From the NCBI GenBank assembly GCA_963749155.1, contig CAVVLO010000002.1, positions 128,001 to 192,000 of the forward strand: 64,000 nt of DNA. Reading direction: 5' to 3'. Position 1 is the stretch's first letter. Every line of letters begins with the position of its first letter. This DNA is from an uncultured Armatimonadia bacterium. Lineage in GTDB: Bacteria > Armatimonadota > Zipacnadia > CAVVLO01. The notes beneath the pieces are model-generated. The model was not told where the DNA came from. It did not search any database and saw only the letters and a program-made list of their open reading frames with translations. Shown in pieces: positions 5,206-28,948 of this stretch. The position numbers and the translations under genes were made by a program.

Positions 5206-5542
5206 GGCAGACAAACTGCAGCGATTTGCCGCCGCGCTTGCCTGGGATTCAGCCACCGATGTGGCGCCGCGCGTATTGGCAGCAGGCTCGGGATGGATGG
5301 CAGACCTGATACTCGACCTGGCGCGCAAGTCGGACGTGCCGGTGAGGGAAAACAAAGATCTGGCCGAACGGCTCAGCGCCCTGGCTCCGCCCGCCTTTAT
5401 CCCCGAGGAGCTCTATCTGGCTGTAGCCGAAGTTTATGCTTTTCTGCTGCGCCTTGACGCCGAGGTTGGTTCACATCAAGTTGGTGATGAAATAAGCAAC
5501 CCCGAGGTAAACGGCGATCCCGGAGATATCGTTCAAGGTTGA
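5192..5542 (+). CDS. FlhB/EscU C-terminal-like protein (FlhX/YlqH type)
   Basis: AAALAWD...APRVLAAGSGWMADLILDLARKSDVPVRE...LAERL...IPEELYLAVAEVYAFL; ATG at 5192 overlaps the upstream stop. Confidence 0.85.
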   Translation: MPQSEADKLQRFAAALAWDSATDVAPRVLAAGSGWMADLILDLARKSDVPVRENKDLAERLSALAPPAFIPEELYLAVAEVYAFLLRLDAEVGSHQVGDEISNPEVNGDPGDIVQG

Positions 5543-6827: not shown

Positions 6828-6937
6828 GGTGTGCCTTCAGCTAGAGGTGAGTGGGGGCAACTCGCTTATGACAAGCGGGGTGCGCCAAACAGATGCCTAA
6901 TTCTACGTCAGCCAGCGCCGCTCGTAAAGCAGGCTGG

Positions 6938-13095: not shown

Positions 13096-15790
13096 ATGGA
13101 CAAATCAAGAGGGATAACCACTGCTGCCCTGCTTGCAGGATTGCTTGGGCTAATATTGCTCGCCGCGGCGACTTTTGCCATAGCGCGCGAAAGGCAGACC
13201 GCGGCCACCGTAGCCGACTATGCCAAACTCGAAGCCGAAGCCGCTAAACTGGGAGGGACCTCGCTTGCGTCCGCGGCGGAAGAAGTCCTTAAACCCGTGC
13301 GCGAAGCGCTTGCCCAGGGCAACCTTGAAACTGTCCGCTCCGAGTTGCCTGGCGCTCAGGATAAAGTCTGGCGCCTCCAGTCCGAGGCCGCTCCCCAGCA
13401 ACCTGGTCCCTCTGGCCTCGAAGGTTCGGAGGCCGATGAATTAAAAACTCTGCGCGCTAGCGCGGCGCTTTTTGCCTCGGATCCCGAGTTGCAAGCCTTG
13501 TACACAAAAATCGTAGAGTCGCTTCCGAGCGTGCCCGAGCCTCAGCGTCCCAAACTAATCCAGACTCTGGACGAGGCCTCCAAAGCTGCTCTGACCAAAG
13601 ATTTTGTGAAAGCCCGGCAGCTTCTTGCTCCCTTTAATCAGACGCAGGCGCCAGTGATGGGCCCAATGACCTTGAGCCCCGAGGCCAAAGCGCTGATGGA
13701 GAAAGACGCCAAATTCAAAAAAATGGTTGAGCTGCTGCAGGCGCGTCTGGCAGACCGAACCCATCCCCCTACCAACCCTCAGGCGCTGGCCCAGGCGCTT
13801 CCGGCGCTAAGAGAAGCAGTTAAAAAGGGTGATGCGACAGGCGGCGCGTTCGGTGCTTTCCAGGGCCTTGAAGGCACTCGATGAGGCCCCTGCCGGTGGC
13901 GCTATGCGGCCAATGATGCCCGGCCAGCCTGGCCAGCCTCAGCGTATGCCCCAGGGCGCCAGGCCGCCTCAGGAGCTTGGCCAGGTCTTTAACGAATTCA
14001 ACCAGCTCATTGGGCAGCTCGGACAGACGGGGCAGCCAATGGACCAGTGGATGCAGCGACGCAATGCTATTCTGGCCAAGTTGGGGCAGCAAAAGTTTGG
14101 CGAAGCGCTTTCGATGGCCAAGCAAGCCAACACTGCGATGAAAGCAGCCCTTGCCAAAAGCCCCAAGCCGACTGGCAAGCCTGTCAGCCCTCCTCCTACC
14201 GGAATTACGCCTCCTGCTGGAGCCCAGCCGACCGAACCTGTACCCAGCGCGCCTCTCGACCTGCTGGTCAAGCGCCTCGATGAAGTGCGGGCTCTGCCGG
14301 CAGAGGATTACAACCAGCATAAGCCGGAGATAGCAGCCGAATTGCTAGCTCTTGCGCGAGGCCAGATGGGTCCCGGCCAGCCTGGTGGGATGGCTCCTTC
14401 CGAGGCTCTCAAAGCCCCGGAGCCTGTAAAACAGGTGCTACTCAAGACCGAAATCAAGGCCGAGAAGTGCGCAGGCTTACTTGATAAACCAGTTTTCCTT
14501 TCCAACGCCTACACGACTACCACAGCGGGAGTCGTCTTCGAGCTGGCTGGCCTGCCCGCCTCCGTTACCAAGCCCAGCCTCGAACTGCGCTGGCGCTCTG
14601 GAGACCACGAGGGCAGCTTCAAACTGGAAGGTGAAGCAAAGGAAGGCAAAGCCGAGTTGGTCCTGCCCGCCAGGCTTCCCGGTCAGGACTGGCCGGGCGA
14701 ACTCTTGCAGGTCTCGGTGCCTGCCGAACTGGCAGGCGCAGAGCTTTCGCTGGTGCGCCTTTCAGCCCCGGCCGTGCCAATCGGCGATTTGCTGCGCCAG
14801 GCGCCTCTGCCCGTGCGCATATTTGACTTCCTGAGGCGTATTGTCATCCCCGGAGAGCAACCTGCCGTCGCCTTTGGGCTGACGCGAGACCAGCGCCACC
14901 CTTGCGAAAGTGGCGTCTCGAGCGTCCTCAACGCCCGAGTAGGCCAGTCGCTGCTTGCGCTTTCCCAGTTACTCGCAGGCAAGCTGCCGGAAGCAGAAGC
15001 TCAACAGATCGCCACGATGGCCACTGGCTTGCTTGTGACAGCTCCAGGCCAGCCCGCTTCACTTGGCGAGCTTGTGACTCTGGCCGAAGCCAGACTCGGC
15101 GCCTCGAGACTGCCAGGCGCAAGCCCGGAGCTTGTGCAACTGGCTGAGAAGAACGCTGATGAAGTGAGAGGCCAGGCGCGCGCAAGTCGTGAAGCCGTCC
15201 TTGCCGCTCCAACCTCGACCCTTGCGGTTGCGGCCAGAGTGCTGCTATTAAGTGACACTGAGGCGCCTTCCGAAGAAGCCTTGAACTTGCTGGGTGAGTT
15301 GCGAGGCAGGCTGGAGGCTTCAACCGGACTGGTGAAGGAGTTCTCGCGCGGTAATCCTGTCTATACAACCTTCGGTCAGGCTTCGACCGCGCGCGCCTTC
15401 GAGCTGGCAGAAAGCAAGCAACCAGGCAAGACCAACGAGGCAGCCCATAAACTGCTTCAAGCTACCTTCAATTCGCCACTACTTGCCGATGCCAGGTTTG
15501 GAGGATTCTTCCAGCGCGCTGGGGCGAAACCAGCCCGCAAGTCGCTGCTTGATCACGCCGAATTGTTGCTAGCGGTCCGGGGCCTCGAGGCAGGTGGATT
15601 GAAGAACGAGCAGCTTGGGAAGTGGGGCGCCGACCTTTCGGCCTTGCTCACTGACAGATTCTACGATCCGGTCTGGAATGGTGCTACAGCGGTCACGGAT
15701 GAGCAGTTCCGGCCTGTTGGAGATTCGCCCTGCGCCACCGCCAGCACCGAAGCGATGTGTGGTCTGCTGCTCGGACTGGTACAGTTCTAG
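13096..15790 (+). CDS. Large membrane-anchored hypothetical protein, probably one gene with a frameshift near 13840
   Basis: Overlapping ORFs 13096-13884 and 13829-15790 join through AVKKGD/QAARSVLSRAL, a helical-hairpin unit repeated in both parts. Pro/Gln/Met-rich linkers. The C-terminus (GGFF...KSLLDHAEL...RFYDPVWNG) recalls (alpha/alpha)6 AGE/YyaL domains. Confidence 0.55.
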
Positions 15791-15799
15791 CCATCCTGC

Positions 15800-16819
15800 T
15801 TATTGCTTGGCGGCCCGGCTTTCGAAACGCAGCCTGTAGGTCCCGATCCCGAAAAGGTCGCCGGCCCGCAGGCTGCGACTTGTTACAGGCTGACCGTTCA
15901 CCAGCACAGGTTGTCCTGTGCCCAGGTCGCGCAAGGAGCAGCGCCCACTCTCGATTGTGAGTTCGCAATGGAAAGGCGCGACCGAGGGGTCTTTTATCAA
16001 GGTGATATCCGCCTTGGGCGAACTGCCCAGCCGCGTCACATGCTGGTAGAGGATGAACTGCTTGCCCGCAAGTGGACCAGTAAGCACATGCAACCAGAAG
16101 GTCTTGGCAGCTTGTTCGACCGCGCTGATAGCGACTCCCACCAGCAGGCCCATTACCGAGAAGCCAATCAGGCGCGACATAAGGCCGCCGCCGGTGACGA
16201 TGGCAAGGGGATCAAACAAGGCCCCTCCCAGGAAGCCACCGAGCAGCCCACCTATCAGGCCATTGAGGATGCGCTTGCCCGAAAGCCCAGGCAAGCCTTG
16301 CCCAAGCCCCACAAACAGCCCCACCAGTGCCCAGGCAAGCGCGCGCACGAAGAGCTGTGTAGCAGGATTGCCACCTTGCTCTCCGCCCCCAAGAGAGGTA
16401 TATGCAGCCTGGCCAACTACGCTGCCGAAGGCGCCCCCTGCCCCGCCAACCAGCAAACCGATGAGAGCGCCCTTCAGGGCCTTCTCCCAAACCCCGCTTC
16501 CCACGCCTTCGGTTGCTCCGAGCAGCAAGCCTATAGGCCCGCCAATTCCAAGGCCCAGAATCAGCATCTCCAGCATCGGGTTGAGCGCCGAGGCAGCTTC
16601 ATCCGAGATGAAAGGCTCCACCGCGCACCAGCTGAGGAAGCCCCCAATCAGACCTGCAAGTGCCCCAAGCAGCACTGGCGAGAAAAGCACCTGAGAAGCG
16701 CCAGACTTGCCTTTGCCGGAGCCCTCTCCCCAGCCAGGGCCTCCCCCAGCACCGACCTGATCGAAGAGATCGCCGTCATCCTTGAAATCATCACTTGTCA
16801 GTATAAGGCGGTCGGGCAC
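15800..16819 (-). CDS. Multi-pass Gly-rich membrane protein with C-terminal FHA-like domain
   Basis: About 6-7 Gly-rich TM segments, then WLHVLTGPLAGKQFIL...LGSSPKADI...VLVNGQPV...LRAGDLFGIG. Confidence 0.85.
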   Translation of the reverse strand: MPDRLILTSDDFKDDGDLFDQVGAGGGPGWGEGSGKGKSGASQVLFSPVLLGALAGLIGGFLSWCAVEPFISDEAASALNPMLEMLILGLGIGGPIGLLLGATEGVGSGVWEKALKGALIGLLVGGAGGAFGSVVGQAAYTSLGGGEQGGNPATQLFVRALAWALVGLFVGLGQGLPGLSGKRILNGLIGGLLGGFLGGALFDPLAIVTGGGLMSRLIGFSVMGLLVGVAISAVEQAAKTFWLHVLTGPLAGKQFILYQHVTRLGSSPKADITLIKDPSVAPFHCELTIESGRCSLRDLGTGQPVLVNGQPVTSRSLRAGDLFGIGTYRLRFESRAAKQ

Positions 16820-17520
16820 TAGTCAAGCACACTCCTGGCTATGGCGTAACCCAGCTGCACAATTAGCTCTTTGAAATTCTTGGTAGAGTCGATGTCTGTG
16901 AAGGTACCGCCCGTCTTCTGCGCCAGCATCAGATAACCTTCAAGGGGCTTCGCGACGACATAACAGGCTAGCCCGCGCTCTTTCAATCCGGTCACTGCAT
17001 CCTCGAGTTTCAGCGTAGTGAAGTCTGTGCCGTCGCCAGCGGTGTGATAACCGGCATCACTAATCAGGATCAGCACTCGCTTGGCCTCGGGCCGGAAGGC
17101 CATCCGCGAGGCACTCATCAACGCTTCAAGCTGATTTTCGGGCTCATCCACGCCACCAACAGCTTGCTGGACGGCCAGCCAGGACTTGAACTCTCCAACA
17201 CTGGGGGTGAGGCTCAGGTCCTCGCGATACACCATCCTGACCTCATCACCGAAGGTCACCAGGCCAAATTTACAGTCTACGCCCTGACCGCTTAATAATT
17301 CGGAGAACTGTTCCGACGCAGCCAAAGTGCCATCGATCTCTTCTCTCATACTGCTGGTTGTGTCGAAAACAAAAACCACGTCCACTGGCTCGGGGCTGAA
17401 GGCCCCTCCCCGCCAGAAGAGCGCCAAAGCGATAAGCCCGGCCCAGCAGGCAACGATCAGCAGCCCAAGGGGAAGGTTGGCAAAGAGAGCTCGGTTGAAT
17501 TCTTTCAGAGAAAAACCCAT
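16819..17520 (-). CDS. Membrane-anchored vWA domain protein
   Basis: N-terminal TM, MIDAS-type DVVFVFDTTSSM, GGVDEPE, LILISDA and LAQKTGG. Confidence 0.9.
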   Translation of the reverse strand: MGFSLKEFNRALFANLPLGLLIVACWAGLIALALFWRGGAFSPEPVDVVFVFDTTSSMREEIDGTLAASEQFSELLSGQGVDCKFGLVTFGDEVRMVYREDLSLTPSVGEFKSWLAVQQAVGGVDEPENQLEALMSASRMAFRPEAKRVLILISDAGYHTAGDGTDFTTLKLEDAVTGLKERGLACYVVAKPLEGYLMLAQKTGGTFTDIDSTKNFKELIVQLGYAIARSVLD

Positions 17521-18635
17521 CAGAGCCCCTCCTTACCCTTGCCCTGGCGCACCCAGAAGACCAGCACTGTGTTGCCCACATGCAGCAAGGCGCCATCTCG
17601 CAGCCTGGCCGATGAGACAGGTTGCCCATCAAGCCCCACTTGAAGTCCTCGCTCGGCCTGCACCTGCCAGCCCGTGCCAGTATGCCGCAGGACGAAGTGA
17701 CGCTCTGCCAGGCCAGGTTCTTTCACCAGCCGCACATCCGCCTCAGGCGAGGAGCCCACCCAATTTTCGGGCTTGTGCAGTATGAACTGCTTACCCCGCA
17801 TCGAGCCTTTGGCCACAGCCAGCCAGGCCTGCTTGAAGACCTCGCCAGCAAGCCCCATCAGCAGTCCAACACAGGCGCCAAGAGCTAGCAGTGCAAGCAG
17901 TCTGCCCAGGCTTGAAGAAGCAACCGCGCCTTTGATAGCCTCAAAGGCGATGCCCCCCAGTAGTCCTCCCAGCGCCCCACCCAGCAGCCCATTGCGCAGC
18001 TTGGCTGCCGAGGTATGCAAAGCCGAACTGCCAATTCCCAGGAAGAAGCCCAGCACCGACCAGCCGACAGCTCGCACAAGTAACGCCGCGGCAGGCCCCA
18101 TAAGATGCCCAGTGGATGCGAACTGGTAAGCCCACTCGGCAAGCGCGCCGCCAAGCGCGCCTCCACAAGCGCCTATCAGCCCCCCCATAAAAGCGTGAGC
18201 CAGAGCCGAAGTGATATCTCCGAAAACCAGTTCCTCAAAACTGCTGAGGAAAAGCCCAATCAGAGCGCCCGCCACCAGGCCATATAAAGCCGTCCTGATT
18301 ATCAGGTCTCCTCCGAAGGAACTCGACCAGGCTAGCAGGATTATCTCTCCAAGCAGCCAGGCGCAAACCGCACCAAGTAGCCCGGCAACCAGCAGCAGGG
18401 CCGGCCTGAGAAGAGCGGAAGCACGACGCGGAGCCACCTCGGGTTTGGCCCAGGCCTCTACTGGAGGGCCAACCGAGGCGCCTGCCGGCTCGAAGACTTC
18501 CTCCTCGCTGAAGTCCTCTGCCCCGAGCACCAGCCTTCCAGAGGCCGGGGGAGGCGCAGGTTCCTCCTCGGCAAAGTCCTCGGAAGTCAACTCCAGTCGC
18601 TCTGGCAGCTCTTCCTTGTCGGGCGTATTGTCCAA
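17520..18635 (-). CDS. Multi-pass Gly-rich membrane protein with C-terminal FHA-like domain (paralogue of 15800-16819)
   Basis: Acidic N-tail, TM block, then WLAVAKGSMRGKQFIL...VGSSPEADV...LRDGALLHVG. Confidence 0.85.
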   Translation of the reverse strand: MDNTPDKEELPERLELTSEDFAEEEPAPPPASGRLVLGAEDFSEEEVFEPAGASVGPPVEAWAKPEVAPRRASALLRPALLLVAGLLGAVCAWLLGEIILLAWSSSFGGDLIIRTALYGLVAGALIGLFLSSFEELVFGDITSALAHAFMGGLIGACGGALGGALAEWAYQFASTGHLMGPAAALLVRAVGWSVLGFFLGIGSSALHTSAAKLRNGLLGGALGGLLGGIAFEAIKGAVASSSLGRLLALLALGACVGLLMGLAGEVFKQAWLAVAKGSMRGKQFILHKPENWVGSSPEADVRLVKEPGLAERHFVLRHTGTGWQVQAERGLQVGLDGQPVSSARLRDGALLHVGNTVLVFWVRQGKGKEGL

Positions 18636-18651
18636 ACCTTACTCCCTGGAC

Positions 18652-19443
18652 CTAGACTGTAGTATCGATTATTCCCTCACTGGCGAGTTTCTGGGCCATC
18701 TGGTCGCGCTTCTCATAACCGGCCTCAAGCGCGGCTTTACTGGCACTGCCGAGTCTGGGAAGTTCAGCAAGCGCCGCTTCATCCACCGGCACCAAGGCTT
18801 GTCTGGCAAGCCCATCAGGCCCGGCCAGGCCCATCAGTTGAAGCAGTTCTTTCATCCTGGCCTCGGTGCCTACAGGACCAAACAACCAAAATCCAACCCG
18901 TCGCAGTCCTTCAGGGCCTTGCTGGAAAGCGCCCAGCTTGCCTTGAACCGGGTCGTGTACCACCGCTACCTGGCCAGGGGCGCTGAAAAAATTCTGCTGG
19001 ATGAACTGGTCGAACTCACTGAGGAAAACCCCAAAGCCCGGATGCGTGTGATACCAGCCCATTATCTTGAGGCCAGGCCAGTTGGCGTCCAGTTCGGCGG
19101 AGAAGGCATTCCAGGTGGCATGGGTGAAGGTAATGTTGGTGTGAGTATGGGTTATATGCTGAGCGGGCAAAGCGTGCTCTAGCTCGATGGCCTCGAAGGG
19201 CGCCCCGCCCGGCAGCTGCCAACGCGAGCGCCTGCCGATTAACGCCCCCCCGAGTTCTCTGCTGCGGTCAGTCATACAGTGAGCGCGCATCGCCGATAAA
19301 GCGCTCAATTTGAAGAAAAGGGGTACCACTGCCGAGGCAGGTCGCTCATACTCGAATACCACCATATCGGTGGTCGCGCGCAGAGGCAACTCCTGCTTCG
19401 GAGCCGCCTCACTCAGGCTGATTTGGAAGTCTTTTTCCGCCAT
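18652..19443 (-). CDS. JAB/MPN+ (Mov34) metallo-isopeptidase
   Basis: ELGGALIG and GWYHTHPGFGVFLSEFD form an intact JAMM motif. Confidence 0.92.
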   Translation of the reverse strand: MAEKDFQISLSEAAPKQELPLRATTDMVVFEYERPASAVVPLFFKLSALSAMRAHCMTDRSRELGGALIGRRSRWQLPGGAPFEAIELEHALPAQHITHTHTNITFTHATWNAFSAELDANWPGLKIMGWYHTHPGFGVFLSEFDQFIQQNFFSAPGQVAVVHDPVQGKLGAFQQGPEGLRRVGFWLFGPVGTEARMKELLQLMGLAGPDGLARQALVPVDEAALAELPRLGSASKAALEAGYEKRDQMAQKLASEGIIDTTV

Positions 19444-19457
19444 AGCCTCTAACCGGG

Positions 19458-19997
19458 CTAACCGAGCTGGATGTCGAAATCGTCTCCACTGGGCGCTGGC
19501 GCCTGGGCCTCATCAAAGAAAACAATATCGATGTCTGGTTGCCGCAAGTCCACATTCTGCAACGGGAACCGGTTCCTGTTCAACTCTGACCAGCGCGCAG
19601 CTTCCGCGTTAAGGGGGCTTTTGGGATTATATTCCTGATAGGTCAGCATCTCGGCGACCTGATAAACGATGTCGACCAGAGTCTCACCGGCCGCCCAGTG
19701 GTCGCCGATGCAGATATAACTGCCAAAGTTGGGGTGCCAGACAGGATCCAGCATCACTGACTTGGGCTTCTCCCTTGGATAATCAGTGTGCAGATATATC
19801 TCGGCGCGGTGGACCTCCCTTGTGCGGATGTTGCCCTGCGCATCGCGCCAAAGCCCCTTAACCCGGTACGTAATCCGATACCGGTCAGGAGGATTGGCGG
19901 GACCAATCGGCTCCACCGTGATATAGGGGTGACCCGAGAACTCCTCTTGCACTCGGCTCCAGTCGGCGGCAAGTCGCCTGAGTCTTGCAACACTCAT
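19458..19997 (-). CDS. Ubiquitin-conjugating E2 (UBC fold)
   Basis: RLRRLAADW, DYPREKP, WHPNFGSYICIG (HPN plus catalytic Cys), W, and YNPKSPLNAEAA. Confidence 0.92.
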   Translation of the reverse strand: MSVARLRRLAADWSRVQEEFSGHPYITVEPIGPANPPDRYRITYRVKGLWRDAQGNIRTREVHRAEIYLHTDYPREKPKSVMLDPVWHPNFGSYICIGDHWAAGETLVDIVYQVAEMLTYQEYNPKSPLNAEAARWSELNRNRFPLQNVDLRQPDIDIVFFDEAQAPAPSGDDFDIQLG

Positions 19998-20026
19998 CTA
20001 CTTCCTCCTGCCTGAATAAAAAACTA

Positions 20027-20947
20027 CTAGCGTTTTATCATACCAAGTAAGCCGGCTGCATTGACCAAAACCGCTTGTGCCTGCCCATATTCATACGAAA
20101 ATTGCTGTAAGGCACCAACGTTTGCGGCCATCTCGGCCCGGCGCAGGTGAGTAACCGCACTTTGCACCTGGCCGACAAACTGCAGTCTCATTGGATTATC
20201 ACGCCCTAGCTGCACCAAAGGCTCGAGTAAGGCTTCACCTGCCTGACGCTCTCCTTCGGCCCTTGCCTGATCGCCCAGGCTCCAATGCTGGGTGGCCAGA
20301 TTGAGGTGATTCAAAGCCTCATCAGCAATTGCCACGAACCTCGACTCATCGAGGAAAGCCGAACCAGCCAGTCCAATAATAATAATTACAACAGCTACAG
20401 CCATTACCGCAAGCACGCCAAAAGCTACCTGGGGACTAGCGCGCCGGCTAGTTGGCCTGGGCCAGCCAGGAGCTGGACGCGCCCATTGGGGAACAGGCCG
20501 GTTGCCCGGCGCGGTCGGCATTACCGGTCGCTGCCCCTGATTTTGGCGCACCTGGGGCGAATTCTCGCACCCATAGGTCGTACAACCGCCGTTCTCCTGC
20601 CAGCATTCCTCGTGATGGGGGATACCGCAGGTAGGACAAACGATACTCCTCTCCCCAGCATCTATTTCGCACTGACAATAAGGACAATTTCTACCTTTCG
20701 TTGGACTGGCCTCGGACTTCATCTCCACAGGTTCGCCTGGCTCATCGAAGGGAATGGGCGCTGGCGCCGTTTGGGTTGGCCCCAGAGTTATTAGCACCTC
20801 GTCATCCTGGTCTAGTGAAGGCAAATCTGATACGCGTGGCCGTGCAAGCGAGGTCTCGAATATCTCCCCGCATACCGGACACATATAAGGAGCAGGCCCT
20901 GCGTCTCGAAACTCGCGCCTGCATCTTGGACAGACAAGCTCAGCCAT
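20027..20947 (-). CDS. Zn-ribbon + prokaryotic RING + single TM + extracytoplasmic helical domain (putative E3)
   Basis: N-terminal CPRC..CPVC; CPYC-x11-CPTCGIPHHEECWQENGGCTTYGC; TM VAFGVLAVMAVAVVIIIIGL. Confidence 0.8.
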   Translation of the reverse strand: MAELVCPRCRREFRDAGPAPYMCPVCGEIFETSLARPRVSDLPSLDQDDEVLITLGPTQTAPAPIPFDEPGEPVEMKSEASPTKGRNCPYCQCEIDAGERSIVCPTCGIPHHEECWQENGGCTTYGCENSPQVRQNQGQRPVMPTAPGNRPVPQWARPAPGWPRPTSRRASPQVAFGVLAVMAVAVVIIIIGLAGSAFLDESRFVAIADEALNHLNLATQHWSLGDQARAEGERQAGEALLEPLVQLGRDNPMRLQFVGQVQSAVTHLRRAEMAANVGALQQFSYEYGQAQAVLVNAAGLLGMIKR

Positions 20948-20953
20948 ATATCC

Positions 20954-21640
20954 TCAGTCGGGCACCTGCTCTGATGCTTCGCTTCGGCCGGTCCTCAAAG
21001 GGGCTGGTTGGCCTCTCGCGTTGCATCCGTATGCGGCACAGCCTGCATTTTCGCTCCAGCAGTCGAAATGATGAGGCAGTCCGCACTTGGGGCAAAACAA
21101 CACCACATCGCCTCGCTCGAAAGGGCTCAGGCAGTAGGCACAAATCTGCCCTGCCACTTCGTCGCCAGCTATCACGAGGTCATAACCTGAATGCCTGAAA
21201 CTCGATGCTACTCCTGTATTGCGCGCGGTCTTGATATGAACGAACAACTGCTGTCCCTGGGGCGACACCAGATGCCACAAGACCAGGCCCCACAGTATAG
21301 AGACAAGCGTCATTGCGCCCAGGGCGAATCCCTGCCAGAGACCGTACGAGAGCCCACCCCAGACTGCAAGCCAGAGCGTAAAAATCCCTGACAGTATGCC
21401 GCTGAAAGGGTCTTCGGAATCGATAACCACATCGCGCAGCTCGGTCCAGGTCACTCGCCGACGCCGCGCAAGTATCACTGGCACAGCGAGCGCCACCAGC
21501 ACTCCCGCCAGGAGGAGCGGCCAGGCGAACACCGTTCCAATGAGCGAGGCGCCCAAGGCGATAAATCCGCCAGAAGCCACGAACAGCAACGCGAAGGCAA
21601 GACCTCCGCGCAGCTCCCTGGAGCCAGACTGACTGCGCAC
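20954..21640 (-). CDS. 4-TM protein with C-terminal prokaryotic RING (putative E3)
   Basis: Four hydrophobic segments, then CAYC-x11-CPKCGLPHHFDCWSENAGCAAYGC. Confidence 0.8.
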   Translation of the reverse strand: MRSQSGSRELRGGLAFALLFVASGGFIALGASLIGTVFAWPLLLAGVLVALAVPVILARRRRVTWTELRDVVIDSEDPFSGILSGIFTLWLAVWGGLSYGLWQGFALGAMTLVSILWGLVLWHLVSPQGQQLFVHIKTARNTGVASSFRHSGYDLVIAGDEVAGQICAYCLSPFERGDVVLFCPKCGLPHHFDCWSENAGCAAYGCNARGQPAPLRTGRSEASEQVPD

Positions 21641-21718
21641 TATACTCCACCGGGCACAGGCGGCCTTAGCTGGCCTGACGCGCCCCCTCTATCATATCAA
21701 ACAGGTGGCGTGTAGGGG

Positions 21719-22351
21719 CTACGTTCCGACCAGAGAAGGCAATCCGCAACACAGGCACGTAAAGAGCAGTATCACCAGTGAGTACACCAGCAGGCTGCGA
21801 CCAAAAGCTCTATCCTCAGGATGGCGCTGCCCCATCAGGATTGCGCCGCCGACAATTCCAGCAAGAGGGCCGATCCCGGTAAAAGCCAGCAGCAGAACCA
21901 TTATGTAGAAAATAGTCCTGACTGCCGCCGGGATCGCCGGCTGTGGCCTCGTCCCTCTGGCAGACCCCCTGTCCCACTGGTCGCCCCGCTGGTCGGACGG
22001 ATAGGGATAGGGCGGCGCCTCTGGACTACGCGGAGCAGTAGGTTCGGTGCGCCCAGCCAGAGCGCGCGCCTGAGGGCTTTCGCTGCAGCCATAAGTTGTG
22101 CAACCCTCGTTCTCTCGCCAGCATTCGAGGTGATGCGGGGTAGCGCAAACTGGACAGCTATGAGTCTGATCTGAAGGGCCAATCTCACTTTGGCAATACG
22201 GACAGAGTTTGCCCACTACGCTTGCTGGCGCCTCTGGCTGGCGAGGGGCTGCGGGCTGCCTTGTAAACATCAACTGGCAATGGGGGCAGAAGTGCATCTC
22301 CCCCGGCTCGTCCTCAAAATTCTGGTTGCAGCGTGGGCACTGGACCTGCAA
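21719..22351 (-). CDS. Zn-ribbon + prokaryotic RING + C-terminal TM segments (putative E3)
   Basis: CPRC..CPHC; CPYC-x11-CPVCATPHHLECWRENEGCTTYGC; Pro-rich linker; 2-3 TM helices. Confidence 0.8.
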   Translation of the reverse strand: MQVQCPRCNQNFEDEPGEMHFCPHCQLMFTRQPAAPRQPEAPASVVGKLCPYCQSEIGPSDQTHSCPVCATPHHLECWRENEGCTTYGCSESPQARALAGRTEPTAPRSPEAPPYPYPSDQRGDQWDRGSARGTRPQPAIPAAVRTIFYIMVLLLAFTGIGPLAGIVGGAILMGQRHPEDRAFGRSLLVYSLVILLFTCLCCGLPSLVGT

Positions 22352-22369
22352 GTAGCAGTTCTCCTTACA

Positions 22370-23059
22370 CTAGCTCTTGAGCCATAAGGCAAAGCCGCGC
22401 AGTAACGCCAGTTCTACCACTCCAAGCAAAATCAGCAACCCCAGGGTGCGCAAGGGAGCTTTCCTCAGCATACTGATGCCCGAGGTACGTCTGTCATGCA
22501 GCGCGAGCGCTGCCAGGTTGATTAGCGCCCCTGCAAGGAGCACCCCAAGCAAACTGAGTCCATCGAGCACAATCCAGCCTGGTCTGATAAGCAATACCAA
22601 CAGGCTGACCCCAGCCAGTGTAACCAGACCAAGCCCAAAGGGTTCCCAGACAGATTTGAACATTGGGCGCCGCGGGGGCCTGGCCGGGGCATGGTTAATA
22701 ATAACCAGCAGCAGACTGGCCAGGGCAGGCCCGGCGAAAGCCCCTGTTGCCAAACGGGTCAGGTTGTCAGTTTCTCTGAAGCCCAGACCAGCAGAAATAG
22801 CATCCAGCCCCATCGGTGCAAGTAAAGCCAGCAAGGCAAGCATACGCCAGACATCGCCTGGATAGTCGGCTTTCGCGCGCCCAAGTGCAGCCAGAAGGAG
22901 CACTCCGACAACAAGTCCCAGATGCACTCCCGTGCAACGCGCGCAGAGGGCCAGTTGCACTTCGCCAGGAGCGAAGGAGTGGCTGGGCATCCGATGGCAT
23001 AAACAGGCGCCTAGCTGATCAGCGCTTTGCCGAAACAACTCGACCCACTCGGGAGCCAC
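22370..23059 (-). CDS. DUF2085-type membrane protein
   Basis: LCHRMPSHSF...LCARCTGVHLG...PMGLD...NLTRLATG; multi-TM. Confidence 0.8.
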   Translation of the reverse strand: MAPEWVELFRQSADQLGACLCHRMPSHSFAPGEVQLALCARCTGVHLGLVVGVLLLAALGRAKADYPGDVWRMLALLALLAPMGLDAISAGLGFRETDNLTRLATGAFAGPALASLLLVIINHAPARPPRRPMFKSVWEPFGLGLVTLAGVSLLVLLIRPGWIVLDGLSLLGVLLAGALINLAALALHDRRTSGISMLRKAPLRTLGLLILLGVVELALLRGFALWLKS

Positions 23060-23061
23060 AA

Positions 23062-24074
23062 TTACGTCCCAGCCGGCTGCTCGCCGCTCGCAGGAAGAAT
23101 CAGTAACCGCCCTGGCAACAATCTGTCAGGATTCACAATCCCATTCAGCCTGGCAATTTCCACCCAGCGCTCGCGAGCCCCGAGTTTTTGCTCCGCTATA
23201 CTGCTTAAGGTATCGCCGGCGCTACCTGATAGATTTGGTAAACCGCCTCGGCTTGGGGTTGAACGGCAGTTGGAGCAGGCTCGGTCTGTACGCCCGCAGC
23301 AATCGGTGGAGGGAGCTTGGCCAGTTCAGCCTGGGCCGCATAGAGTTTGATTTTTACATCTGACAATTCAGTTTCCAGACGCTGGACCCTGGTTGTCAGC
23401 GCAAGCAGCAGCACGCAGGCAGCCAGCAAGAGCGCCCAGGGAGCCCAGAGGGCCAACCTCGAGGCCGGTTGCGCAGCCGGCTGAAGGGCCTCGGGCGCCA
23501 GCCCCTCGTGCACCAGGTGATAGCCGGGCAGCAGTTCAGGCCCTGAGTCGGTATTTCCGAAAAAGCCTTGTTCTTTGGCCCGAGGGTCGTAAACCAGCGC
23601 CACCTGAGAGGGCATATTGAAAAAATTGCCCTGGATAAAAAGGTCGTGACCTGACAGGAATATGCCGAATCCAGGATGAGAGTGCACCCAGCCGACGACT
23701 TTCTGGTCAGGATAGTCGGCTTCCAGTACCTCATAAATGTGGTTCCAGGCTTCGTGGGTGAAGGTAAGGCTGGCTCTGCGCGAGTCGGCGCCCTCGGCGG
23801 CGATCATCCCAGTCACATGGATGTGCCAGCGCCCGCGCTTTTCGTGGGAAGTACCCACTAGCACCCCGCCCAGCTCATTGGAGAGATCCTGACTAAGGCA
23901 GGCGACGATCTGATCCCAGACCGGGGCGTCCAGATAGACTTGTACGCGCGCGGACTCAGGCTGTCCAATAGCCTCGCAGTGTTCGGGAGCAGGCAGTTTG
24001 GAGGCAGAGCCTCCCCCGCCCTCTACGGCAGGGGCAAGCTCTAATTCGAAGCCTTCTTCGTTGTTATCAGTCAT
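23062..24074 (-). CDS. JAB/MPN+ peptidase - TM - coiled coil - LysM (frameshift near 23218)
   Basis: ELGGVLVG and GWVHSHPGFGIFLSGHD; TM WALLLAACVLLLAL. After a frame change it reads YQVAP/GDTLSSIAEQKLGARERWVEIARLNGIVNPDRLLPGRLLILP (LysM) to TAA at 23062, abutting the next start at 23059. Confidence 0.85.
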
Positions 24075-24078
24075 CTGA

Positions 24079-25410
24079 TCAGATTCTCGACAGGTTGCGC
24101 TGGATACTGGCAGGCTTGCGTTTATGCTCGAGGCGAGGCTCCATACTGGTCGCCAGCGCCCCAAGGGCGCGAGCGCGATCCGCGGCCAACAAGTAATGCT
24201 TCATCTCGAGTCCTACCCGCGCGGTCACGATGTCGTAGAGGGGCAGGCCAATCTCAGCCAGTGTCATATCGCCGAACTCTTCGGTCCCGCTGTAGGTATG
24301 AGCCAGCTCGGTATCGCGCGCTTCTCCACAGCCCGGGCACCTGGCATCTTTTTCGGACAGTCTGCCAAGCAGTTTGAAAACAGGTTCTCTTGTTCCGCAC
24401 TTTTGGCACAGGAAGGCCGCAACCAGCTCGCGGTCCAGTTCTACCAGCGCCTCAGGTCCCAGATCAGTTCTGGCCCGTTCCAGCAAAGCGTTGAAGGTCA
24501 GGTCAGCGACTCCAGCTTCAAGGGGGATTACTTCCTCAAAGGTAAAATGGGACAGGCAATCTTCTTTCCTTGGATAGTCTACAAGGAAAGAATCGTGAGT
24601 CAGCCCGTTAAAGACCCAGCCCTTGCCGTAAAGCACAGGGAGTTCGGGGCGAGCGTGCAAAAGTTTTAACGCCTCCAGCACTTGTACACCTGCCACGATG
24701 GAAGCACTGGTTGGAGTTGTCGGCACCTTCCCCTCGAGCAACTGGTCCCGGCTGAGCAGAGCGCAGGACTTGCGAGCCGCCAGCAGCTTGGTGTCGAATT
24801 CGTTCATCGTGCATTCATAGCAAGACGAGTCCGGTGGCACAAAAACTCGCGCGATGCCATTCAACACTTCTATGGCGCCATCTATCCAGGGAGTGTTTAC
24901 CTTCCAGCAGGCCTGGTTGATACCGAGTCTGGCCTCCCGGTTGTCAAGCCCGCCGAGGACGACATCCATCTCCAGGAAAACGCCAAGCCCAATATCGGTC
25001 AGCACATTGCCCTGCACCGCGTGAACCGCACAGTCAGGGTTGATTTCCCTGACTGTTTCAGCAGCCACTTCGGCCTTCGGGCGTCCCTCGTCTTCGACCC
25101 GGAATAAAACCGAACGCGTAAGGTTGGAATGCTCTACCGTATCGAGATCAAGCACCAGCAGATTGCCCACGCCAAGCAAAGCGAGATTCTTGAGCAGCTC
25201 GTTTCCAAGCGCGCCGGCGCCTACAATCAGCACCGAAGAAGCTTTGAGCAGAGTTTGATCCCACCAGGGCACGAGGAAGAAACGCGCATAACGGCTGGCT
25301 TCTTCCTCCATACTGACAGTGAGAGGCCCGCCTTCCGCGTCCTTGCCCGAAGGCGCGGGCGCGGGGCCTTCTACAGCAGCCCCGAGCTCAATATCAAAGT
25401 CATCACTCAT
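24079..25410 (-). CDS. ThiF/E1-like ubiquitin-activating enzyme
   Basis: VGAGALG, DLDTVEHSNLTRS, KAEVA, GLDNREAR, CYEC, candidate catalytic Cys in RKSCALL, and an extra CQKC..CPGC Zn ribbon in a C-terminal extension. Confidence 0.93.
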   Translation of the reverse strand: MSDDFDIELGAAVEGPAPAPSGKDAEGGPLTVSMEEEASRYARFFLVPWWDQTLLKASSVLIVGAGALGNELLKNLALLGVGNLLVLDLDTVEHSNLTRSVLFRVEDEGRPKAEVAAETVREINPDCAVHAVQGNVLTDIGLGVFLEMDVVLGGLDNREARLGINQACWKVNTPWIDGAIEVLNGIARVFVPPDSSCYECTMNEFDTKLLAARKSCALLSRDQLLEGKVPTTPTSASIVAGVQVLEALKLLHARPELPVLYGKGWVFNGLTHDSFLVDYPRKEDCLSHFTFEEVIPLEAGVADLTFNALLERARTDLGPEALVELDRELVAAFLCQKCGTREPVFKLLGRLSEKDARCPGCGEARDTELAHTYSGTEEFGDMTLAEIGLPLYDIVTARVGLEMKHYLLAADRARALGALATSMEPRLEHKRKPASIQRNLSRI

Positions 25411-25413
25411 CTG

Positions 25414-25683
25414 CTAACCAGCCGTGACTTCTGGCTGCAACCGCATCACGTCGCCATCCTTCACGCCAGCGTCGGCAAGGCTTTCGTCGTCCGTAAGTTG
25501 CTTGCCCGACTGCTTGTGGACCACTTTGTAAGAGAGCGGTTGGCCGTCAGGGCCGGTCGCCGGCAGTTTCATCATCTGCACAAGCTTGGCAACAATACGA
25601 CGCACCGCTACATCATCCGGCACGGTCGCCTGCTGTTCTTTGTTGCCAGTTACATCAATTATGGTCACGTTGACCTGTCCCAC
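25414..25683 (-). CDS. Ubiquitin-like protein (YukD/EsaB-type beta-grasp) ending in Gly
   Basis: 89 aa; VNVTIID, VPDDVAVRRIVAKLV, GKQLTDDESLADAGVKDGDVMRL, C-terminal PEVTAG; AAGGAGG RBS. Confidence 0.9.
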   Translation of the reverse strand: MGQVNVTIIDVTGNKEQQATVPDDVAVRRIVAKLVQMMKLPATGPDGQPLSYKVVHKQSGKQLTDDESLADAGVKDGDVMRLQPEVTAG

Positions 25684-25695
25684 TGCTGGCCTCCT

Positions 25696-26706
25696 TTAGT
25701 GAAGCTGGATGTCTATATCATCCAAATTTTCTTCTGGTTCTTCGCGTGGCGCCTGAGGTTGCGGGGTTGTCGGCCCGCCGAAATGGATCTCGGGCTCAGG
25801 CCCCACCTCCTGCGGTTGGACTGGCTGCTGGCCTGGCATCGGAGTGTGCGGGCCTTTCTTCATGAACAGCCAGGTGATTACCGTTGCAATCGCCATTATG
25901 ATGAATATGACAAGTACCCAAACCGCCGGATTGGCGGGAGGCTTTTCTTCGGCTGGCACTTCAGGCACATCGGTCTCAGGAGGGCTGGGAGTCTCGCCCG
26001 CCGGAGGCCTGGCGCCTTCGACAAGCTTAAGGCTGAATTGCTTATGACTTGGGACTACCAGGGCTGAGACGCCTTGCTGATTGAGCAGCTTCAACAAGTC
26101 GTTGCTTGGCAGGGCAAAGCCCATACCCTGGGCGCCTTTCAGTACGCGCACAGCTACCCCCAGCACCTCGCCCTGCGAGTTGAGCAGCGGTCCACCACTG
26201 TTGCCAGGATTTAGCGCCGCATCTGTCTGCAGGAATGGCTGGTCCTTTTCTTCCGAAGGCAAGGAGCTGATGATGCCCCGAGTAGCCGAATCGATGGCAA
26301 AAGGCGAACCAATCGCAACGACTGAATCGCCCTGCTTTACGCTTGCCGAATCGGCAAGGGCCAGTGCAGGCGAATTGTCCACCGGGACTTTCAGCAACGC
26401 CACGTCGGCCTTCTCATCCCGGAAGGTTACCTGGGCCTGGGTCTTCTTCTTGCCGTATAACTCGACATCCACCATCGGATGCCCGCCTACGACATGCGCG
26501 CAGGTCACCGCGACGCCATCGGTGTTGATGAAGAAACCAGTGCCAATCCGTTGCTTGCCCTCTTCATCTACCGAGACCTGAAGGACAGCTGGTTTGGCTC
26601 CTTCAATCAGGGCAGGGGTCGGCTTGTCACCAGACTGACAGAAGGCCGGTAAGCCTGAAATCGTTATCCAGCCAGTAAGGAGCATTGCGAGCACTAGCCA
26701 CTTCAT
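25696..26706 (-). CDS. Membrane-anchored trypsin-like (S1C) serine protease without PDZ
   Basis: Signal peptide; TCAHVV, DVALLK, QTDAALNPGNSGGPL; C-terminal TM and a Pro/acidic cytoplasmic tail. Confidence 0.9.
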   Translation of the reverse strand: MKWLVLAMLLTGWITISGLPAFCQSGDKPTPALIEGAKPAVLQVSVDEEGKQRIGTGFFINTDGVAVTCAHVVGGHPMVDVELYGKKKTQAQVTFRDEKADVALLKVPVDNSPALALADSASVKQGDSVVAIGSPFAIDSATRGIISSLPSEEKDQPFLQTDAALNPGNSGGPLLNSQGEVLGVAVRVLKGAQGMGFALPSNDLLKLLNQQGVSALVVPSHKQFSLKLVEGARPPAGETPSPPETDVPEVPAEEKPPANPAVWVLVIFIIMAIATVITWLFMKKGPHTPMPGQQPVQPQEVGPEPEIHFGGPTTPQPQAPREEPEENLDDIDIQLH

Positions 26707-26812: not shown

Positions 26813-28948
26813 CTAGAGGCCGCCCTGTATCACCCAGTCGAGAGCTGGCTCGGGCTTGCGTTTGCCTGTTGCGTAGTCATAGATGGCCAGGTTCACCAGC
26901 CTGGCTGCCCTGACAAGCTCTATATAGGGCCTGTCAGCGACATCAACAAATCCGATATTGTAGTTCTCTCCATCGAACCGCCCAGTGAGCGGTTGGTCTG
27001 CATATTCGAACCAATGGACGCCTACCAGATTGGGCAGAGCCGCGGCGCTTGAAACATAATGAGCGTAGGCCTGGGCGCGCTCAGGCTGCGACGCGACTGG
27101 ACGCAGTCCGCCTGCAAGCCCACTGTCGAGTGCCCCAAAATGGAACTCTCCCCCGATAAAAGGTTTACGCGCCAGTTCGTAAAACTGCTGAGCCTGCTCA
27201 GGATTTATCTCATACAGATAGGGGTTGAAGGACACTACATCACAGTATTCTCCTGCGGCTTTGATGGCTTCTTCCGAATAGGCGGCAAAACGCGCGCCCA
27301 GATAAAGATGACCGGGATCGTGACGCTTGAGTACTGCGCGAACGGTACGGAAATACTGCCGGGCAAATTCAAGCAGATAGACGCCGAGGTCAGCCTTGGC
27401 AGCCTCCGGAAGCTCGCGCACCTCGACAGGCGCGTCTTGCCTGAAAGCCTCGAAGCTTGCGAAACTGGTGCCCCAGGCCGCATTGAGGCGCGCCAGGTCC
27501 TGGCCATAAGTGGCAAAGAGCTGTCTCATAAGCGCGCGCCTGGCGAAGGACTTCTCCGGCAAGGCCAGTACCTGAGAGGCCAAATCCAGTTTGCCTGCTT
27601 CGTCCCAGCCTGCCCAAGGTAGTTCATTATCGAAAAAGTAACCGAGTATCCAGGGATCGGCGGCAAGCTCCTCCAGTTGAGACGCAAAGCTGGCCTCAAG
27701 CTGTTTTGCGAACTCGGGATCAAAGGGATCAGGCATACGTTCATTTACTTTGGGTACCCCGCCTGGAGTGCCCAGAGCGACCACATAAGCCGTCCTGCCG
27801 CGAGTTTGGAAGTCTCGGTCCGACCAGTTGCCAATTGTGTTGAAGCCCCAGGCGCGCAGCCGGTCGAGGCTGACCCGGATCCAGCTTTCGCGCCACTCAG
27901 GCCCATATTTACGAATCAGGTTGGCGGTGTAGAGGCTGACCCGATTGGGATCTCCCCAGCCTGCAGTGCGCGCTGGTCCGAAAGTGGCATCCTCCAGGGC
28001 AGGCAGCCACTTGAAAAGAGCCTCTCTGCCCGAGAGGGGGGTTGCGGTGTCGCCAAGCCCCATCACGTCCATCCCGACCGACCAGAACAGCCGCCCCTCG
28101 GGATCGACCAGCCACCAGCGCCCACCATGCTGAGTGGTTCGGAAGCGTCCGGTGGCCTCAAGCTTGGGGCCAGCCGCCCAACCGCCATACTTGTCGAGCC
28201 AGGCCGGGAGCATCACCTGGGCGAGCTGCCGGGCTTCTCCCTCAGCCTGAAGACGCAATTGACCGTCCGACTCGACCTTCACCTCAGCCGACAGAAAGCC
28301 GGGTTGTCCGAACTCATCCAGCAGCCAACTGGGCGCCTGACCTTTTACCAAACCTGCCCTCTCGACCAGCAGCTTGCAGGATTCGGTTGGATTTACCAGG
28401 AAGAGCACCAGCCGCATCATCCGCTGCCAGTAGATGGGTGGCCCGTAAAGCTGGCGCGGGATGAAGCCCTCTCCTGCCATTGGAGGCCAGCGCATCGCCT
28501 CATCCGTCCAGGTTGTAGCAAGGCGGATCCGGCTCAGGCGATGGGGCAGCAAGTAGAATTCGAACGTCTTCCAGCCTTCCTTGCCATCAGAGCCAAGCGA
28601 ATCAAGACGCAGGTGAACAAGCTGAGGCCTCGTAGAGGGATTCCATATTTCGAGTTCAAAAGCTGGGGCCTTCGTCCAGTCAGTCTCCAACCCAAGGGCC
28701 GAAAATTCCAGCGACAATCCGGGATATTCGGCCGGCTGGAAGGTAACTTCGACGACCTGCCCTCCGGCTGGCGCCTCGACAAGTCGGGCGGTCGAACTGG
28801 AAAAACTGGCCGCCTCCAGCAGCTCTTGTCCAGCCAGCGAGAAGGCCAGCGCGCTTGGGGAGAGGGCAAAAAGCAGTAATAAGACGGTCCAGCAAGCCTT
28901 CAAGACAATCCCCCCCAAGCCTGGCTGAAAGGTTAATTCGTGTTCCAC
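26813..28948 (-). CDS. GH50-like (beta-agarase family) glycoside hydrolase, secreted
   Basis: WWLVDPEG, WGFNTIGNWS, DPFDPEF, GYFFDNEL, DVVSFN, GEFHFGALD and DQPLTGRFDGENYNIGFVDV motifs. Confidence 0.85.
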   Translation of the reverse strand: MEHELTFQPGLGGIVLKACWTVLLLLFALSPSALAFSLAGQELLEAASFSSSTARLVEAPAGGQVVEVTFQPAEYPGLSLEFSALGLETDWTKAPAFELEIWNPSTRPQLVHLRLDSLGSDGKEGWKTFEFYLLPHRLSRIRLATTWTDEAMRWPPMAGEGFIPRQLYGPPIYWQRMMRLVLFLVNPTESCKLLVERAGLVKGQAPSWLLDEFGQPGFLSAEVKVESDGQLRLQAEGEARQLAQVMLPAWLDKYGGWAAGPKLEATGRFRTTQHGGRWWLVDPEGRLFWSVGMDVMGLGDTATPLSGREALFKWLPALEDATFGPARTAGWGDPNRVSLYTANLIRKYGPEWRESWIRVSLDRLRAWGFNTIGNWSDRDFQTRGRTAYVVALGTPGGVPKVNERMPDPFDPEFAKQLEASFASQLEELAADPWILGYFFDNELPWAGWDEAGKLDLASQVLALPEKSFARRALMRQLFATYGQDLARLNAAWGTSFASFEAFRQDAPVEVRELPEAAKADLGVYLLEFARQYFRTVRAVLKRHDPGHLYLGARFAAYSEEAIKAAGEYCDVVSFNPYLYEINPEQAQQFYELARKPFIGGEFHFGALDSGLAGGLRPVASQPERAQAYAHYVSSAAALPNLVGVHWFEYADQPLTGRFDGENYNIGFVDVADRPYIELVRAARLVNLAIYDYATGKRKPEPALDWVIQGGL

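Follow-up and report, generated by a model that had tools for sequence, protein, structure and literature searches.

A recurrent short peptide on most proteins of a bacterial ubiquitin-type operon as a candidate docking motif

The operon and the placement of its recurrent peptide

The window described in this article is a stretch of 64,000 nucleotides from an uncultured Armatimonadia bacterium (assembly GCA_963749155.1, contig CAVVLO010000002.1, positions 128,001 to 192,000 of the forward strand). Its minus strand carries, at 15800–26706, an operon of 13 genes, which was delineated from the open reading frames (ORFs) and their Pfam families. The gene order is protease, ubiquitin-like protein (Ubl), E1, JAB1, DUF2085, RING1, RING2, RING3, E2, JAB2, FHA1, vWA, and FHA2. 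Nine of the 13 encoded proteins bear at least one copy of a short acidic and hydrophobic peptide, the subject of this article; the Ubl, DUF2085, RING1, and vWA proteins bear none. With a Ubl, a ThiF-type E1, a UBC-type E2, RING proteins, and JAB peptidases all encoded together and all found by Pfam, the operon is a member of the prokaryotic ubiquitin-type class that contains Prok-RING_1. Burroughs, Iyer and Aravind predicted operons of this E1/E2/RING/JAB class in 2011. In the summary given by PMC3417536, the class is called mobile and is placed nearest to the eukaryotic system; the sections of that summary dealing with the class do not mention a shared tail motif.

Two flavors can be told apart in the peptide, which is a true short linear motif (h, hydrophobic residue; x or a dot, any residue). 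Type A has its acidic residues first, [DE][DE]-h-[DE]-I-x-[LF], as in DDFDIEL, and type B has them last, [KR]-h-x-h-[TSG]-x-[DE][DE]-h, as in RLELTSEDF. All genes and copies given in the following are located on the minus strand. The membrane-anchored trypsin-like protease (25696–26706; Trypsin_2, 9e-31) consists, judging from its sequence, of a signal peptide, the protease domain, one transmembrane (TM) helix, and a Pro-rich tail, and its extreme C-end is formed by the type A copy NLDDIDIQLH (25699–25728). The neighboring Ubl (25414–25683; YukD, 2.8e-13) comprises 89 amino acids and ends in EVTAG. The E1 of the ThiF family (24079–25410; ThiF, 1.3e-52) starts with the type A copy SDDFDIELG (25381–25407) and contains a second, weaker and type B–like copy, PLTVSMEEE (25300–25326), right before its adenylation domain, at the site where the E1 of relatives has its single copy. 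JAB1, a JAB/MPN peptidase (23205–24074; JAB and Prok-JAB) whose start was placed at the ATG at 24074 on the basis of the E1 stop at 24079, begins with MTDNNEEG and carries the type A copy EEGFELELA (24033–24059) in its N-end. Herein, the APAVEG behind the copy resembles the AAVEG behind the E1 copy.

RING2 (20954–21640; TM helices and Prok-RING_1, PF14446) has the type B–like copy DLVIAGDEV (21155–21181) just upstream of its RING domain and a weak further copy, DVVIDSEDPF (21404–21433); both are weak instances, as the pattern that they match has ∼88 matches genome-wide. RING3 (20027–20947; PF14446) is built from a zinc ribbon, a linker, and the Prok-RING_1 domain, and the linker contains the copy DQDDEVLITLG (20780–20812). 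In the E2 (19458–19997; UQ_con and an AlphaFold2 model), the UBC fold is followed by a C-terminal tail with an internal copy, PDIDIVFFDE (19509–19538), and a type A copy at the extreme C-end, GDDFDIQLG (19461–19487). JAB2, the second JAB/MPN peptidase (18652–19443; Prok-JAB and JAB), carries the type A copy EKDFQISLS (19411–19437) at its N-end. FHA1 (17520–18635; Yop-YscD_cpl of the FHA fold, 3.6e-10) comprises an acidic N-tail, a multi-TM region, and a C-terminal FHA-like domain, and the N-tail holds two type B copies, RLELTSEDF (18573–18599) and RLVLGAEDF (18510–18536). FHA2 (15800–16819; FHA, 2.1e-11, and Yop-YscD_cpl, 3.4e-16) shares the layout of N-tail, multi-TM region, and FHA domain and has the type B copy RLILTSDDF (16784–16810) at its N-end. 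No motif was seen in the DUF2085 membrane protein (22370–23059; DUF2085), in RING1 (21719–22351; Prok-RING_1, PF14446, with TM helices), or in the vWA protein with its N-terminal TM helix (16819–17520; VWA and Integrin_beta). FHA2 is mirrored by an ORF of equal length (339 amino acids) on the opposite strand (15803–16822, plus), which probably is a GC-rich shadow ORF.

An earlier note on this DNA had described an acidic motif that recurs on unrelated proteins between 16780 and 25740. The seven peptides quoted there are all present on the minus strand at the places given, the E1 and E2 copies differ in one of eight residues, and the recurrence on unrelated folds, in tails and linkers, holds. 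The span lies within the operon, which is wider, and the list of copies was incomplete because it lacked the two copies of FHA1, the copy of FHA2, the two copies of RING2, and the second copy of the E1. One of the carriers had been termed a JAB-LysM protein; its JAB domain was recovered by Pfam, a LysM domain was not.

The copies occupy linkers or the extreme ends of the proteins and adjoin Pro/Ala/Gly-rich stretches that vary in length. The AlphaFold2 model of the E2 shows a confident UBC fold (mean predicted local distance difference test score, pLDDT, of 88.9) without secondary structure past residue 143, and the pLDDT falls to 60 for residues 161–170 and 57 for residues 171–179. Hence, the E2 tail is disordered in the model, and the composition of the other motif-bearing tails suggests the same for them. 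In the protease, the copy lies past the C-terminal TM helix in Armatimonadota and ahead of an N-terminal TM helix in the relatives L056, L086, and L119; both arrangements place the motif on the side of the TM helix that faces away from the protease domain. This side would be the cytoplasm according to the signal peptide and the charges flanking the TM helix. The E1 bears either type A or type B at one and the same spot, just before the adenylation domain. A motif that is retained while its position is free (N-end, C-end, or linker) and whose context is disordered exhibits the behavior of a short linear motif.

Rarity in the genome and conservation among relatives

The motif is specific to the operon and very rare elsewhere in the genome. 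In a crude ORF-called proteome of the window's own genome (3546 ORFs with 1,276,011 residues, the share of the operon being 3,545 residues), DDFDI occurs twice, both times within the operon. D[FI]DI[EQ]L has five matches, of which three are found in the operon compared with 0.014 expected, and all three operon copies are terminal; the peptide is therefore not equally common throughout the genome. The type B pattern L.L[TGS][SA][ED]DF matches twice in the called proteome, both times in FHA1; the FHA2 copy is absent from this count because the gene caller picked the ORF on the opposite strand. Patterns of a looser form are not as confined to the operon: [DE][FILV][DEQ][ILV].L[GAS] has 52 genome matches with three in the operon, and the loose regular expressions for types A and B have 103 and 88 genome matches, respectively. 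Circularity was avoided with a weight matrix that was trained solely on 27 C-termini of other genomes (15 proteases and 12 E2s). Among all 8-mers of the genome, this matrix ranks the protease end first (24.3 bits), the E1 start fourth, and the E2 end eighth, and the remaining high scorers are internal segments of unrelated proteins. Outside the operon, RpoC (the β′ subunit of 1757 amino acids, encoded on contig C1 of the same genome at 521589–526862) has a long acidic tail with the type A–like peptide EEEEEELDLELG, which contains LDLELG.

For a comparison with operons of the same class, 41 genomes were searched (40 relatives and the window's own), and the operons of the relatives bearing an E1 were then compared. 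E1 orthologues with an identity of 52 to 58% are present in 19 genomes, in addition to a distant one with 40%, and the gene order is the same in the 19 same-class genomes. The motif is conserved in these operons rather than absent from orthologues. The protease ends in DL[SR]D[IV][DE]I.L. in 15 of 15 and the tailed E2 in [ED]D.[DG]I[EQ]L. in 12 of 12 operons, the latter also possessing the internal QP[DE]-h-[DE]-I copy. The N-end of the E1 shows h-L-D-h-[DT]-L in ∼17 of 18 cases, as tallied by eye, and the N-ends of the JAB proteins mostly read [DE]L[DE][IV][DES][IL]. Similar copies are carried by the RING linkers of relatives, e.g. GDVLDIELED and EDVLEIELEG.

The E2 end was also compared in 120 listed homologues (47–88% identical) out of 650 found at E ≤ 1e-5. 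Within their final 50 residues, 115 of the 120 have at least one relaxed copy and 86 at least two, and in 104 a copy starts within the final 12 residues. The positional bias at the C-end is pronounced, with D at −7 in 92, I at −4 in 103, and L or F at −2 in 106 of the 120; D/E dominate positions −9 to −7 and −5, and the adjoining linkers vary freely. The internal copy, written as QP[DE]h[DE]h.h, is matched by 44 of the 120. Overall, the feature is real, conserved, and operon-specific.

A second type of E2, 32 to 39% identical to that of the window, is encoded just upstream of the protease in many relatives (L024, L028, L029, L032, L034, L035, L037, L039). It ends in DDRPLAVY or DDRPLAPGY and has neither a tail nor a motif copy. 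In four of these loci (L024, L028, L029, L032), the tailed E2 and the RING proteins were not detected.

Beyond the nearest relatives, scans based on the Ubl yielded 80 loci each for species genomes and for metagenomes. The operon was found in Armatimonadota, Bacillota, Planctomycetota, Actinomycetota, a Verrucomicrobiota metagenome-assembled genome, Kiritimatiellia, and Victivallales. In Planctomycetota, Kiritimatiellia, Victivallales, and Actinomycetota, the usual order is Ubl, E1, JAB, protease (not always present), FHA, RING, and E2, and herein type B prevails, as in KIRITLDDL, KITVTLDEV, and RIVLGEEDF. These type B copies are located at the N-ends of FHA, E1, and protease and in the E2 linker that follows an N-terminal zinc ribbon. 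The two FHA proteins of the window carry the same acids-last form as the lineages of the Planctomycetota-Verrucomicrobiota-Chlamydiota type and Actinomycetota.

A pooled tally with two fixed patterns over deduplicated ORFs of 179 related loci gave matches in 53 of 79 FHA ORFs (all of them to the type B pattern), 36 of 57 protease ORFs, 36 of 142 E1 ORFs, 26 of 109 E2 ORFs (including the tail-less second type), 20 of 142 JAB ORFs, and nine of 98 RING ORFs. One of 144 Ubl ORFs matched, as did 107 of 3795 other ORFs of at least 100 amino acids in the same loci. The enrichment over neighboring ORFs is therefore 3- to 24-fold by ORF and modest for JAB and RING; since the fixed patterns are narrow, the family tallies are lower bounds. 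The type A pattern had been widened after its first version scored 0 of 15 on the protease form with its LSD.

Weight matrices were applied to the same question. A rigid matrix built from protease and E2 ends, at a threshold passed by 1% of the other ORFs, found 19 of 107 JAB (15 on the N-side), seven of 71 RING, and four of 56 FHA ORFs. At this threshold, it also found nine of 89 E1 ORFs, all nine hits being inside the domain and none an N-tail copy. The rigid matrix is too narrow for the N-terminal variants. Iterated matrices recovered 43 of 56 FHA ORFs as type B and 25 of 35 protease ORFs as type A, figures that are circular since the matrices were trained on the same proteins; at 12 bits, the iterated type A matrix gave false positives in nine of 3108 other ORFs.

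The Ubl as a candidate receptor and its alternatives

The Ubl is the sole universal component of the operon without the motif, which the iterated matrices found in none of 90 Ubls at every threshold. Its AlphaFold2 model is a β-grasp fold with a pLDDT of 93.9. In sequence profile as well as in fold, its nearest solved structure is the ubiquitin of Caldiarchaeum subterraneum (28% identity), followed with similar scores by ubiquitin, NEDD8, and SUMO. Across phyla, Ubls are 56 to 79% identical, and PDGQP and the terminal T-A-G are invariant. Among 45 sequences from several phyla, the mean column identity is 74%, and E85, T87, A88, and G89 are invariant and I86 nearly so, i.e. a C-terminal Gly is available for activation. 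Some Ubl genes run 1 to 11 residues past the TAG (e.g. in L022, L023, L047, L058, and L061), and these extended forms presumably would need trimming by a JAB peptidase. The Ubl of the window has V54-V55 compared with F54-H55 in at least 90% of the 45 homologues; its nearest metagenome relatives (78–79% identical) keep F-H at these positions.

A docking role of the motif is likely, and a short linear docking motif shared by the operon proteins is the reading in which we place high confidence. The docking peptide would add a short β-strand to one common partner, most likely the Ubl in its free or conjugated form. In this way, the motif would recruit the Ubl to the E1 and hold it on the E2 and E3, where tandem copies suggest that several Ubls could be bound. 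It would also bring the JAB peptidases to conjugates, which it would connect with the protease and with the membrane-bound FHA proteins. Taken by itself, the choice of the Ubl as the receptor is plausible, with odds somewhat short of even, and the arguments for it are indirect. The statement as a whole, a common docking peptide on most operon proteins with the Ubl as its receptor, is given a probability of roughly 0.42.

Several observations speak for the Ubl as the receptor. It is universal yet free of the motif, and its conservation is unusually high. The carriers of the motif are the enzymes that handle the Ubl, together with membrane proteins for which no other connection to it is apparent, and multivalent binding is suggested by the E2 tails, which usually hold two copies. 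The earlier note had pointed to a basic first helix in the Ubl, and the quoted helix RRIVAKLVQMMK is indeed present. The net charge of this helix is +3 in lineages with an acidic motif strand, compared with +1 to +2 in those with a basic or neutral one. A second signal relates residues 54 and 55 of the Ubl to the first hydrophobic residue of type A. With F54-H55 in the Ubl, 100 of 104 instances (60 loci) have an aliphatic residue at this position, whereas it is aromatic in 16 of 16 instances (six loci) in a single Bacillota clade with L54-H55; in the window's genome, whose Ubl is unique in having V54-V55, it is F in most copies. Both covariation signals, read from alignments, would weakly favor the Ubl as the receptor. 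A predicted complex of the Ubl with E2 residues 146–179 scored 0.28 in both runs, which were made without controls, compared with a mark of 0.32, and weighs on neither side of the question.

Other points weigh against this reading. The covariation is confounded with phylogeny because it is based on two or three lineages. Residue 54 appears to align with the buried Gln41 of ubiquitin, in which case it would not have to contact a ligand. Actinomycetota with F54-H55 still end their type B copy in F (IVLGEEDF), and several Planctomycetota with L54 or I54 share the type B form of their F54 relatives. On account of the few lineages, the buried position, and these counterexamples, the pairing of residue 54 with motif aromaticity was downgraded as a proof of contact. 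The Ubl is slightly net negative, with 10 K+R compared with 12 D+E. That types A and B use one site is an assumption; they are not exact mirror images of each other. The fixed patterns match just 9 to 25% of the RING, JAB, E1, and E2 ORFs; since they miss most of these, the tally there rests partly on tails read by eye. As a caution, SIM-type binding, i.e. the mode of the SUMO-interacting motif (SIM), is stated to be absent from the ubiquitin realm in the sections of PMC12687455 devoted to it. A ubiquitin-like bacterial case would be noteworthy, if true.

The receptor might instead be another protein of the operon, or the tails might pair with one another as amphipathic strands, either of which would yield a membrane-proximal complex independent of the Ubl; we regard this as unlikely, at well below even odds. 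Candidate receptors would be the ubiquitin-fold C-terminal domain of the E1, the backside of the E2 β-sheet, and the JAB domain, and an E1, an E2, and at least one JAB protein do occur in nearly all related loci that are long enough. A type A strand is amphipathic, one of its faces being hydrophobic and the other acidic, and residues 151–160 of the E2, which hold its first copy, keep a pLDDT of 78 and may lean on the E2 core, whereas the monomer model shows disorder for the last E2 copy. The second E2 type, which lacks the tail and is encoded upstream of the protease in many relatives, would also fit a receptor of this kind. However, each of these candidates itself bears the motif in at least some lineages, so that singling out one of them as the receptor is less parsimonious. 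FHA or vWA as a general hub is less likely because neither was found by Pfam among the 93 flanking ORFs of ten same-class operons that keep the motif; in other phyla, FHA is a regular member and there the main carrier. FHA domains read phosphopeptides with a pT-x-x-D-like spacing, and FHA as a phospho-dependent reader of the T/S of type B was rejected as the general explanation, since S/T is usually missing from type A, the operon showed no kinase gene, and the ten same-class operons lack FHA.

A factor outside the operon might read the motif, e.g. a housekeeping protease, an unfoldase, a chaperone, or a cytoskeletal or membrane hub, with the peptide acting as a localization signal or degron. 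Bacteria do have acidic and hydrophobic tails that bind hubs, such as the C-terminal tail of SSB and the C-terminal peptide of FtsZ; two of the strongest copies are located at extreme C-ends, and RpoC ends in the acidic tail described above. However, a free C-terminus is no requirement, given the many N-terminal and internal copies, and the motif is almost confined to the operon within the genome and accompanies it in at least five phyla, a distribution that favors a receptor moving together with the operon. An outside reader is thus improbable. Slightly less probable still is mimicry of the Ubl C-terminal tail (LQPEITAG), by which the motif would enter the clefts of E1 or JAB as a pseudosubstrate and cause autoinhibition or gating. 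The internal E2 copy begins with QP[DE][IV] (QPEIDIDL in relatives), like the QPEIT of the Ubl, and two copies in this genome end in L-G, but the likeness is poor past three to four residues and the terminal Gly is not conserved, the L being followed by H, Q, K, R, C, or L in relatives. In addition, mimicry leaves type B and the copies of protease, FHA, and RING unexplained. That the motif has no function, being chance or a by-product of acidic low-complexity tails, is very improbable: the tails are acidic and Pro/Ala-rich and loose patterns have ∼100 genome matches, but the E2 C-end is conserved in a position-specific manner, the protease end is invariant in all 15 operons, and the pooled enrichment stands against it as well.

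Relation to known interaction motifs and adjoining genes

By analogy, the motif would work like a SIM, an LC3-interacting region (LIR), or a UFM1-interacting motif (UFIM), yet it belongs to none of them. SIMs have three to four V/I/L residues within four or five positions, including the form [VI][IL]DLT, and bind in both orientations. The operon motif shares with them the short hydrophobic strand, the acidic flanks, which occur on either side of the strand, and the flexible extensions, and the E1 copies of some relatives (VLDLT, IVDLT, and ILDLT) fit the [VI][IL]DLT form. The earlier note had named it a SIM-like docking code. This is a fair analogy as far as the acidic flank and the disordered location are concerned, which are seen in the E2 C-ends and the model of the E2 tail. 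It does not extend to the core of hydrophobic residues in a run, as the main form h-[DE]-I-x-[LF] alternates, nor to SUMO specifically, as the operon Ubl is nearer to Caldiarchaeum ubiquitin, ubiquitin, and NEDD8. SIMs are described on flexible extensions of SAE2 and of the SENPs, in a manner compatible with an enzyme-bound modifier, in the relevant part of PMC12687455.

LIR-type peptides are present on ATG4B and Atg3. What the LIR shares with the operon motif is an acid-flanked hydrophobic peptide that recurs within a single Ubl pathway, on its E1, its E2, and its processing protease. The LIR core [W/F/Y]-x-x-[L/I/V] has its hydrophobic residues at i and i+3, whereas those of the operon motif are at i, i+2, and i+4 (−6, −4, and −2 in the E2), and the operon motif is aromatic only in this genome and in one Bacillota clade. 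The LIR, or Atg8-interacting motif (AIM), is given with a WXXL consensus and with strand addition to β2 in the pertinent section of PMC10183829. The same section describes C53, whose tandem shuffled AIMs in a disordered region bind UFM1 and ATG8; tandem copies are likewise found on the operon E2. For the E1 of the UFM1 pathway, UBA5, a noncanonical enzyme of the homodimeric type, a linear UFM1-interacting sequence (UIS) outside the adenylation domain is reported with a Kd of ∼8 μM; its key residues, Trp341 and Ile343, are two positions apart. Atg7 contacts Atg8 in a similar manner, via a region outside its adenylation domain (both from the sections of PMC5428781 on these contacts). The operon E1 resembles UBA5 in having its peptide just before the adenylation domain and in the h-x-h register, and by this analogy the peptide may bind a Ubl. 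The UIS differs in that its partners are UFM1 or ATG8, found only in eukaryotes, and in its U-shape around the Trp, whereas the operon motif is present on up to nine of 13 proteins and has an aromatic residue only in certain lineages.

The ubiquitin operon of Caldiarchaeum subterraneum is similar in its gene set (Ubl, E1, E2, RING, and JAB) and encodes the nearest solved Ubl structure. This archaeal system has been reconstituted, and the abstracts of the two reports do not mention such tails (PMC5654768, PMC6043591). A literature search returned no description of a shared motif, the main papers of the Aravind group, including that of 2011 on the operons, being outside its reach. The operon class is already known, and the shared tail motif is new as far as was found; bacterial members of the class have been predicted, with no experimental study in bacteria among the literature found.

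Among prokaryotic systems, the bacterial E1/E2/RING/JAB operons are those most closely related to the ubiquitin system of eukaryotes, and a single conserved peptide common to most components provides a direct experimental handle on the hub. The peptide also marks likely members of the pathway that have no enzyme domain of the conjugation system, i.e. the putatively cytoplasmic tail of the exported protease and those of the FHA membrane proteins. Since these tails bear the motif, the conjugation machinery would be tied to the membrane. If the Ubl is the receptor, noncovalent recognition of a Ubl by an added strand would be older than eukaryotes, and tandem copies on the E2 would imply that poly-Ubl chains are read or built at the membrane. 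The widest form of the proposal is a pathway-wide code, in which one strand motif in two orientations on E1, E2, E3, deubiquitinases, and membrane effectors would bind the Ubl noncovalently, and in which recognition of the SIM, LIR, and UFIM type would be pre-eukaryotic and ancestral to signaling by the ubiquitin family, instead of being particular to SUMO, ATG8, and UFM1. This form we consider doubtful.

In the window, the operon is flanked by two large genes, one at 13829–15790 on the plus strand (653 amino acids) and one at 26813–28948 on the minus strand (711 amino acids). Neither matches a Pfam family at E ≤ 0.01, and the 711-residue protein gives only a subthreshold hint of Glyco_hydro_42 at E ≤ 1. 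Among the relatives, L022 has a two-gene cassette of an AAA_21 ATPase and a DUF4276 protein inserted between the E1 and JAB genes (5075–6870, minus strand). The distant cassette L040, whose E1 is 40% identical, encodes a fusion of Ubl and E2 with DDLEVEF in its C-terminal region, together with a long JAB protein and a CHAT-domain protease of 903 amino acids. In the relatives L024 and L028, the operon is adjoined downstream by gidB, parA, and parB, which are usually located near the replication origin.

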